A stretch of DNA of 64,000 bases from the NCBI RefSeq assembly GCF_057098645.1, contig NZ_CM169472.1. One strand, given 5' to 3'. Position 1 is the first letter of the stretch. Each line of letters opens with the position of its first letter. Of this stretch, positions 25,901-28,900 are shown piece after piece. Made by a program: the position numbers.

Positions 25901-28900
25901 TTCTGGCCTGCCATGCTGGAAGGCAGCAACTTCCGCAAGCCGTCCAACCTGTTTGTTCATGGCTATGTGACGGTGAACGGCGCAAAGATGTCCAAGTCTC
26001 GCGGCACCTTTATTAAAGCCAGCACCTGGCTGAATCATTTTGACGCAGACAGCCTGCGTTACTACTACACTGCGAAACTCTCTTCGCGCATTGATGATAT
26101 CGATCTCAACCTGGAAGATTTCGTTCAGCGTGTGAATGCCGATATCGTTAACAAAGTGGTTAACCTGGCCTCCCGTAATGCGGGCTTTATCAACAAGCGT
26201 TTTGACGGCGTGCTGGCAAGCGAACTGGCTGACCCGCAGTTGTACAAAACCTTCACTGATGCCGCTGAAGTGATTGGTGAAGCGTGGGAAAGCCGTGAAT
26301 TTGGTAAAGCCGTGCGCGAAATCATGGCGCTGGCTGATCTGGCTAACCGCTATGTCGATGAACAGGCTCCGTGGGTGGTGGCGAAACAGGAAGGCCGCGA
26401 TGCCGACCTGCAGGCAATTTGCTCAATGGGCATCAACCTGTTCCGCGTACTGATGACTTACCTGAAGCCGGTACTGCCGAAACTGACCGAGCGTGCAGAA
26501 GCATTCCTCAATACGGAACTGACCTGGGATGGTATCCAGCAACCGCTGCTGGGCCACAAAGTGAATCCGTTCAAGGCGCTGTATAACCGCATCGATATGA
26601 GGCAGGTTGAAGCACTGGTGGAAGCCTCTAAAGAAGAAGTAAAAGCCGCTGCCGCGCCGGTAACTGGCCCGCTGGCAGATGATCCGATTCAGGAAACCAT
26701 CACCTTTGACGACTTCGCTAAAGTTGACCTGCGCGTGGCGCTGATTGAAAACGCAGAGTTTGTTGGAGGTTCTGACAAACTGCTGCGCCTGACGCTGGAT
26801 CTCGGCGGTGAAAAACGCAATGTCTTCTCCGGTATTCGTTCTGCTTACCCGGATCCGCAGGCACTGATTGGTCGTCACACCATTATGGTGGCTAACCTGG
26901 CACCACGTAAAATGCGCTTCGGTATCTCTGAAGGCATGGTGATGGCTGCCGGTCCTGGCGGGAAAGATATTTTCCTGCTAAGCCCGGATGCCGGTGCTAA
27001 ACCGGGTCATCAGGTGAAATAATCCCCCTTCAAGGCGCTGCATCGACAGCGCCTTTTCTTTATAAATTCCTAAAGTTGTTTTCTTGCGATTTTGTCTCTC
27101 TCTAACCCGCATAAATACTGGTAGCATCTGCATTCAACTGGATAAAATTACAGGGATGCAGAATGAGACACTTTATCTATCAGGACGAAAAATCACATAA
27201 ATTCAGGGCAGTTGAGCAACAGGGAAACGAGTTGCATATCAGTTGGGGAAAAGTTGGCACCAAAGGGCAAAGCCAGATAAAAAGTTTTTCAGATGCTGCG
27301 GCAGCGGCAAAAGCGGAGCTTAAGCTGATTGCGGAGAAGGTGAAGAAGGGGTATGTGGAGCAAGCGAAGGATAATTCTTTGCAACCTTCCCAAACGGTAA
27401 CGGGCTCTCTCAAGGTAGCGGACTTATCCACCATTATTCAGGAACAACCCTCTTTCGTAGCAGAAACCCGTGCGCCTGACAAAAATACAGATGCTGTTTT
27501 ACCGTGGCTGGCGAAAGATATTGCTGTCGTTTTTCCGCCCGAAGTTGTACACACCACGTTAAGTCATCGCCGCTTTCCCGGAGTTCCTGTTCAGCAAGCA
27601 GACAAATTGCCCCAATTACGTCGCTTAGCCTGTAGTGTGTCGCAACGGGATAATAAAACAGCCACATTTGACTTCAGCGCCTGTTCTTTAGAATGGCAAA
27701 ACACCGTCGCCCAGGCGATCAGTCAGATCGACGGCCTGAAAACAACACAGTTACCATCACCAGTAATGGCTGTACTCACGGCACTTGAAATGAAATGCAC
27801 AAGATATAAAGTGCGTGAGGATGTTATGGATCAGATCGTCCAGGAAGGCGGTCTGGAATATGCTACTGATGTAATAATACACCTTCAACAGATTGATATT
27901 GAATGGGATTATGCGAATAATGTCATTATTATTCTGCCGTCTGGCATTGCACCTAGCTACTTGGAGCAATATTCCAGATTTGAATGACGCCTACGTAAAC
28001 ATTTATCACTGACGGAAGAGTCTCTCTGGCAAAAATGTGCACAAAAACTTATTGCCGCAATTTCACATATTCCAGAATGGCGGCAACCATTAATTGCTTT
28101 GTTATTACCCGAAAAACCAGAAATTGCACATGAAATTGCCCAGCGTCTACTGGGGCAAAAAAAATTACCCTCGCTTGAGTGGTTAAAAATAGTGGCGACT
28201 GATGAGCACATTCTTGCCTCATTAGAAAAATATCACGAACCATATGCCATTTTTGATGATTACTATTGTGGTGCGATATGGTCAGCCACCGTATTACAGG
28301 AGCAAGGTGTTGCAGCCCTGCCCCGATTTGCTCCCTATGCCGCAAGTGACTACTGCGCCGATGTGTTGCGTCATATCAATCATCCGTTCGCATTGACACT
28401 GCTTATACGTGTAGCCGGGCAAACTAAACGCTGTCACGATCGGATGACGAAAGCCATTGCTGCGTTCCCACATGCAGCAATGGCGGCACTGACGGAACTT
28501 CTTGGGCAAAAAGAAGAGAACAGTTGGCGCATTATGCTAATGACAATGCTTATCTCACAACCAGCACTGGCAGAACAGGTCATTCCCTGGCTCTCGACAC
28601 CCGCAGTTGCCGTACTGAAATCATGCCAGCAACAACTGACACAGCCCTCAAACCATGCCAGCGCCGATCTACTGCCAGCCGTAGTAGTCTCCCCTCCCTG
28701 GCTTTCGAAAAAGAAAAAATCGCCGATTCCGGTGCTGGATTTAGCGCCATTAGGCATTGAGCCAATCTGTTATCTGACAGAAGAAATCAGTAATCAACTT
28801 TTGGCGAAATATATCTGGTATTCAAAACACATCACGGTTAGCCATGAAGAAAGTACTACCAACCTGTTGGCAAGGATGGGTTTTCAACGACGGATCGCTG

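Follow-up and report, generated by a model that had tools for sequence, protein, structure and literature searches.

A premature stop in molR, shared with Escherichia coli K-12, forms the yehF/yehH boundary

Two open reading frames (ORFs) at 27163-27987 and 28099-30957 are listed separately in the 64,000-nucleotide stretch of contig NZ_CM169472.1 (assembly GCF_057098645.1) analysed here, which we call the window. Both lie where molR is found, raising the question of whether they are two genes or one broken gene and, if one, whether the break is peculiar to this strain. A preliminary description had read them as a single molR frame interrupted by one opal codon and, since molR of K-12 is annotated as a multi-fragment pseudogene, had proposed that the gene was hit independently here. 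The best explanation of the whole, to which we assign a probability of roughly 0.9, is an ordinary loss-of-function nonsense mutation in molR that arose once and recently on an otherwise wild-type haplotype, is now found in some 13% of sequenced E. coli, K-12 among them, and itself forms the boundary between yehF and yehH. The molR TGA is thus a real, ordinary, inherited and already annotated pseudogene polymorphism, not a new one.

The upstream neighbour of molR is metG (24980-27022), followed by an intergenic region (27023-27162, plus strand) that contains the molR promoter and shows 0 differences from K-12. In K-12 this promoter responds to activation by BglJ-RcsB and is free of H-NS repression, and the gene behind it has been described as "disrupted in K12" (PMC3950696); molR of the window strain is presumably transcribed from it as well. 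The molR 5' fragment (27163-27987, plus strand; K-12 yehF, b2115) starts with ATG, comprises 274 codons and ends at the premature TGA, codon 275 of the gene (27985-27987, plus strand). This stop stands in the context TTT GAA TGA CGC, with C as its 3' base (UGA-C), and the peptide reads EQYSRFE up to it and RLRKHLSLTEES beyond it (the same junction is also given as YSRFE, stop, RLRKHLSL). The 3' remainder (27988-30957, plus strand; K-12 pseudogene yehH, b4499) consists of 989 open codons in the same frame and includes the DUF4132 domain; the second listed ORF (28099-30957, plus strand) is a 952-aa portion with a TTG start. Since the two ORF starts are 936 nt, or 312 codons, apart, they share a frame. 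Translating 27163-30957 as a whole on the plus strand gave 1264 codons and a terminal stop, with codon 275 as the sole internal stop, bearing out the description of one frame with a lone interruption and an otherwise intact course. About 989 stop-free codons directly behind an in-frame stop are not a chance occurrence ((61/64)^989 is ~1e-21).

What kind of change produced the stop became clear from an alignment of the window gene with 22 other molR alleles, a set with 8 intact and 14 ordinary TGA alleles (window included). Codon 275 is TTA (Leu) in each of the 8 intact alleles sampled, whereas all 14 sampled carriers have TGA. Gene position 824 (window 27986) is the only fixed difference between the TGA and intact groups, every intact allele having T there; at the other sites that split the TGA consensus from its nearest intact relatives, the remaining intact alleles side with the TGA haplotype. 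Because intact alleles differ from it consistently at 27986 alone, the TGA haplotype is an ordinary wild-type haplotype that has acquired a single T>G transversion, just as the single substitution of a Leu codon that had been proposed would require. That proposal had drawn on a Leu in the paralog YehI opposite the TGA, and the MolR/YehI protein alignment confirmed the pairing: intact MolR YSRFELRLRKHLSL aligns with YehI YNEFDLRLRKHLSL, placing the premature stop on a conserved Leu (in the fuller segment, YehI EFDLRLRKHLSL against MolR RFELRLRKHLSL). The stop deletes 78% of MolR.

Intact alleles are annotated as a 1264-aa "WGR and DUF4132 domain-containing protein" coding sequence (CDS) over the same 3795-nt interval, in strains PM7, G5, CP61_Sichuan, B27, O121:H19 FWSEC0006, E110019, 2017.17.01CC and GPEC1222. 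Their dN/dS is 0.13-0.21 overall and 0.11-0.16 3' of codon 275, indicating that the full-length gene is selectively maintained, and hence functional, where it is intact. Measured against these orthologs under purifying selection, the window gene carries a disabling lesion and on that count qualifies as a pseudogene.

Is this lesion independent of those that fragmented molR in K-12? The K-12 copy is indeed a multi-fragment pseudogene: RefSeq NC_000913.3 lists yehF (b2115, 2196474-2197298, 825 nt) as the CDS "PF05406 family protein YehF" and, downstream, the pseudogene yehH (b4499, 2197410-2200269), whose lengths and spacing equal those of the two window ORFs to within one base. The fragmented state of the K-12 copy, together with the absence of the K-12 frameshift from the window, would suit a separate origin of the TGA. 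However, nucleotide alignment revealed the identical TGA at codon 275 of MG1655 (K-12 2197296-2197298), where it serves as the stop codon of the yehF CDS, and the two molR haplotypes differ at just two positions in 3795 nt: MG1655 has C for T at 28063, and its run at 30006/7 is longer by one G. Sequence around the gene is likewise nearly identical, with ~7 differences across 22.7-32 kb (~9.5 kb), and the TGA is shared by 710 genomes (see below). The claim of independence from K-12 is therefore to be dropped, and we regard a separate origin as having practically no chance of being correct; shared TGA and shared flanking haplotype mark the window gene as a K-12-type nonsense allele by descent. 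The extra G of K-12 (GG to GGG, gene position ~2845) shifts the frame of the 3' third of the gene. At 30006-30007 (plus strand) the window has the unshifted GG and so does not share the two-hit state of the K-12 laboratory lineage; it carries the older lesion common to both, without the second one of K-12. Specific to the window strain are only this lack of the K-12 frameshift and a private C>T (Pro301Ser) at 28063 (plus strand), 3' of the premature stop; a 55-mer centred on T at 28063 had 0 matches in 5426 complete genomes.

How far the TGA is shared across lineages, a check that the preliminary description had called for, was determined by a megablast census covering 5,426 complete E. coli genomes, with every 28-nt seed forced to contain the variant base and with 55-mer queries centred on the site (a 53-mer for the G-run). 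The TGA allele was present in 710/5426 genomes (~13%, about one in eight). TTA queries matched 3,244 genomes with the local background of the window and 962 with a divergent (G5-type) one; the two sets may overlap, so that we take 3244 as a lower bound for the TTA total. The K-12 GGG frameshift occurred in 356 genomes, those listed being essentially all laboratory K-12 derivatives; this leaves ~350 genomes with the TGA and without the frameshift, as in the window. Sampled carriers include human, poultry, bovine, pig and sewage isolates from Pakistan, Denmark, China, Japan, the USA, Spain and Bangladesh, as well as O145:H28 STEC. Each bears the PGAP label "pseudo; internal stop". We looked for a functional MolR that carried the TGA under another accepted gene model, which had been named as the case that would overturn the reading of the codon as a lesion, and found none.

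The census also bears on whether the TGA is a stop at all. TGA is the selenocysteine codon, and single-base errors do occur in sequencing and assembly, so the codon could in principle be recoded or spurious. A total of 710 independent assemblies, the MG1655 reference among them, agree on this base, which excludes an assembly error. As for recoding, Rfam matches within 27800-28300 (E<=10) were at chance level only and included no SECIS element; the RNA fold of 27985-28050 (66 nt) gave -7.3 kcal/mol, the shuffled sequences averaging -8.3 kcal/mol (z=+0.40), indicating no stable hairpin 3' of the TGA; and the homologous residue is Leu rather than Cys. Neither hallmark of a selenoprotein, a SECIS hairpin 3' of the UGA or a homolog with Cys or Sec, is thus present, and we give recoding and error together almost no credence.

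The 14 sampled TGA alleles are 0-2 nt apart over 3795 nt and have the T>G alone as a shared derived change, indicating one recent origin. On this comparison, the distribution would reflect one young TGA haplotype that spread rather than recurrent mutation. A genome named after Nissle, EcN_Sk, was considered as an independent TGA origin and rejected, because it matches K-12 exactly over the 5' 750 nt and encodes the MetG protein of K-12. Over the 25 kb around the window molR the best match is to O145:H28 genomes (99.9%). O145:H28 resembles K-12 in the molR region, whereas the molR structure of O157:H7 is very different, which suggests that the TGA haplotype may have moved between lineages by recombination.

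Does the allele still yield some full-length protein? UGA followed by C is the leakiest stop context in E. coli, as known from the literature on termination context. The window stop is TGA-C, nothing interrupts the 989 downstream codons either here or in the 12 natural carriers sampled, and the promoter region is unchanged; near-cognate tRNA-Trp might therefore read the stop at low frequency and produce some MolR(Trp275) with part of its function, making the allele a hypomorph and not a null. Several observations argue against such leakage. The downstream frame shows no sign of selection: among the singletons of the TGA clade we counted 4 nonsynonymous changes, P301S (window), D526N, L768F and D70N (JP538), to 1 synonymous change, G1104G. 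With only five changes, this ratio has P=0.03 for an omega unchanged at 0.13 and P=0.67 for neutral evolution; substitutions are few for a test of relaxed selection because the haplotype is young (0-2 SNPs). Second disruptions have occurred on the TGA haplotype, namely the +G of K-12 (356 genomes) and, in strain 4/2-1, an insertion of IS1. Readthrough would also place Trp at a residue that is Leu in both paralogs, and the fold 3' of the stop offers no stimulatory structure (z=+0.40). The lack of a second lesion in the 12 natural carriers sampled is expected for a young allele but would also be compatible with residual function. Singletons and second disruptions together fit a pseudogene in early decay, with small numbers and a young allele. 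We consequently hold a leaky stop to be very unlikely, and slightly more so the stronger proposition that readthrough in carriers without a second lesion makes the TGA allele a tolerated hypomorph at ~13% frequency rather than a dead gene.

A further alternative is that the nonsense mutation split molR into working parts. Pfam places WGR (PF05406) at MolR residues 6-69 (nt 27178-27369; E=1.2e-16, 61 bits against a gathering cutoff of 22) and DUF4132 (PF13569) at residues 988-1173 of full MolR (nt 30124-30681; E ~1e-50, 171 bits against a cutoff of 27). The gene thus belongs to the WGR plus DUF4132 family, and the window stop separates the two domains. Under a functional fission, YehF, the 274-aa fragment with the WGR domain, would be a working protein, either alone or alongside a C-terminal product made by restart. 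The fragment contains the whole WGR domain, O157:H7 has a stand-alone "WGR domain-containing protein", and YehI is a natural example of a DUF4132 architecture lacking WGR; RefSeq moreover lists K-12 yehF as a CDS, so the 274-aa fragment may be expressed. The position of the stop speaks against a fission, as it lies ~165 residues past MolR residue 110, from which YehI aligns, and not at the boundary between WGR and the body of the protein. Restart looks no better: the frame offers no start codon before a TTG 38 codons 3' of the stop, and a separate DUF4132 protein made by restart is unlikely because 27988-28546 contains no in-frame ATG, GTG or TTG with a motif resembling a Shine-Dalgarno sequence. 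PGAP treats the whole of molR as one pseudogene, and one of the five clade singletons (D70N in JP538) is a nonsynonymous change within the fragment itself. A functional fission therefore seems improbable, although less so than a leaky stop.

Translation from the molR start stops after 274 residues, yielding a fragment with the WGR domain only. On the loss-of-function reading, the 989 codons 3' of the stop would no longer be translated usefully, given that no restart is preceded by a Shine-Dalgarno sequence, and the sequence there would drift neutrally, as may be seen in the K-12 +1 G, the IS1 of strain 4/2-1 and the Pro301Ser of the window. The ~3 kb of untranslated mRNA would probably exert Rho-dependent polarity on yehI, whose start lies 9 nt past the molR stop (30967-34585, plus strand). 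In the window strain yehI is disrupted by its own lesions, which differ from the molR TGA: its ORF ends after 792 aa, with a 1-nt deletion at 33311 common to the window and O145:H28 and a 13-bp deletion at 33385 whose junction is found in 0/5426 complete E. coli genomes. Gene conversion from molR into yehI was rejected as the source of a divergent yehI patch at 32889-33174, which in BLAST matches yehI alleles only (~85-86%) and no molR.

Searches for a function of these proteins returned little. A PADLOC-DB v2 scan of six proteins (MolR, YehI and YehL/M/P/Q) found no family at E<=0.01. Among solved structures, the WGR domain of MolR alone has a match, to an uncharacterised protein (PDB 2ra8), and the NCBIfam match covers the WGR part only and falls far under its cutoff, allowing no functional inference. 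In the literature on DUF4132 and yehL/M/P/Q we found no functional study of the protein; for molR, only the promoter (PMC3950696) and an ST131 transposon insertion (PMC9334617) are documented.

Beyond correct annotation, the molR TGA is of little import. For the window molR, the appropriate annotation is a single pseudogene interrupted by a stop or, following K-12 practice, yehF with a remnant of yehH, rather than two independent genes. The window also keeps the one-hit intermediate that preceded the two-hit state of K-12, a small example of stepwise pseudogene decay. More generally, molR and its paralogs in the metG-yehK region have been broken repeatedly, by nonsense mutation, frameshift, deletion, IS1, IS903B and the transposon TnMB1860, which suggests that WGR-DUF4132 proteins are dispensable in many lineages. 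Functional work on these proteins should bear this in mind and choose a strain with the TTA allele.

Among known systems, yehF/yehH of MG1655 (formerly molR_1/_2/_3) is like the window molR in its metG-yehI locus, its codon-275 TGA and its upstream promoter region, with 3793/3795 identity over the gene leaving aside one indel; it differs in having the extra +1 G frameshift, and the window in its private Pro301Ser. Intact MolR (WP_257180875.1 of PM7; WP_172615793.1 of CP61_Sichuan) shares length, domain order (WGR at 7-69, DUF4132 at 988-1173) and genomic position with the window gene at 98.5-99.8% nucleotide identity across the intact alleles, which, unlike the window, have TTA (Leu) at codon 275, are annotated as a whole CDS and are under purifying selection. 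The paralog YehI (b2118, DUF4132 domain-containing) is adjacent in the same orientation, is 37% identical to MolR over ~1190 residues and conserves the (E/D)LRLRKHLSL motif with the mutated Leu; it has no WGR domain, and its alignment begins at MolR residue 110. Elsewhere the locus has been damaged in other ways. In O157:H7, molR is internally deleted or truncated, leaving a truncated WGR protein and a partial DUF4132 remnant, and a third paralog upstream has an internal stop; molR is interrupted by IS903B in strain CDE2901-yvys and by IS1 in strain 4/2-1; strain G5 has an extra, frameshifted paralog; and in ST131 sublineage L1a the resistance transposon TnMB1860 lies in the metG/DUF4132/yeh region (PMC9334617). 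The O157:H7, IS903B, IS1 and TnMB1860 disruptions are other events at other positions and are truly independent, unlike the TGA of the window relative to that of K-12.

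Like molR, its paralog yehI (window 30967–34585, + strand) is a pseudogene in the window too, with an ORF that stops after 792 aa. Two lesions lie within it: a 1-nt deletion at 33311, common to the window and O145:H28, and a 13-bp deletion at 33385, where both K-12 and O145 carry GGATCTCTTCACT. A search of 5426 complete E. coli genomes found the 13-bp deletion in none of them (0/5426). In molR, a C>T substitution at 28063, shortly 3′ of the premature stop, results in Pro301Ser; a 55-mer centred on this position had no match when run against the same 5426 genomes, and the variant is private to the window strain, which is itself absent from that genome set.

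In some lineages the interval from metG to molR contains an additional DUF4132 paralog, the third at this locus, for instance in strain G5 (L003 1–2989), where it is frameshifted, and in O157:H7 (L025 1–2477), where it has an internal stop. The locus is a tandem paralog array in repeated decay. The 5.06-Mb genome NZ_CP172017.1 (L006, 'EcN_Sk'), named as a Nissle derivative, encodes a K-12-type MetG and a molR whose 5′ end is K-12-like and includes the TGA; gene positions ~1500–2250 are highly divergent or noisy, and further frameshifts are also present. The genome is a K-12/EcN recombinant, or else its assembly is at fault.

The DUF4132 paralogs are followed on their 3′ side by the conserved yehL-yehQ cluster (window ~35283–41788; 15284–21788 in compared locus L007), which encodes a MoxR-type AAA+ ATPase (yehL), a DUF5682 protein (yehM), a vWA protein (yehP), and a SWIM zinc-finger protein (yehQ); WGR/DUF4132 genes and MoxR/vWA/SWIM genes adjoin as one neighbourhood. 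None of these four genes matched a PADLOC defence model, and a literature search turned up no functional study of the cluster.

Within yehI, a patch of ~300 nt (window 32889–33174), also found in O145:H28, differs from K-12 yehI at ~15–19% of positions, and the surrounding 9 kb is >99.9% identical to K-12. Gene conversion from the paralog molR can be discarded as its source: the patch did not match molR, and its only matches were yehI alleles, at 85–86%. It therefore looks like a recombined segment whose donor was an unsampled yehI allele.

Across window 20000–44999, the top matches were O145:H28 STEC genomes (99.9%), with 9 SNPs and the 13-bp yehI indel relative to RM8988-C1. Yet metG-molR of the window is nearly the same as in K-12, and the molR structure of O157:H7 is very different, which together hint that the O145:H28 lineage acquired a haplotype block resembling that of K-12 by recombination.
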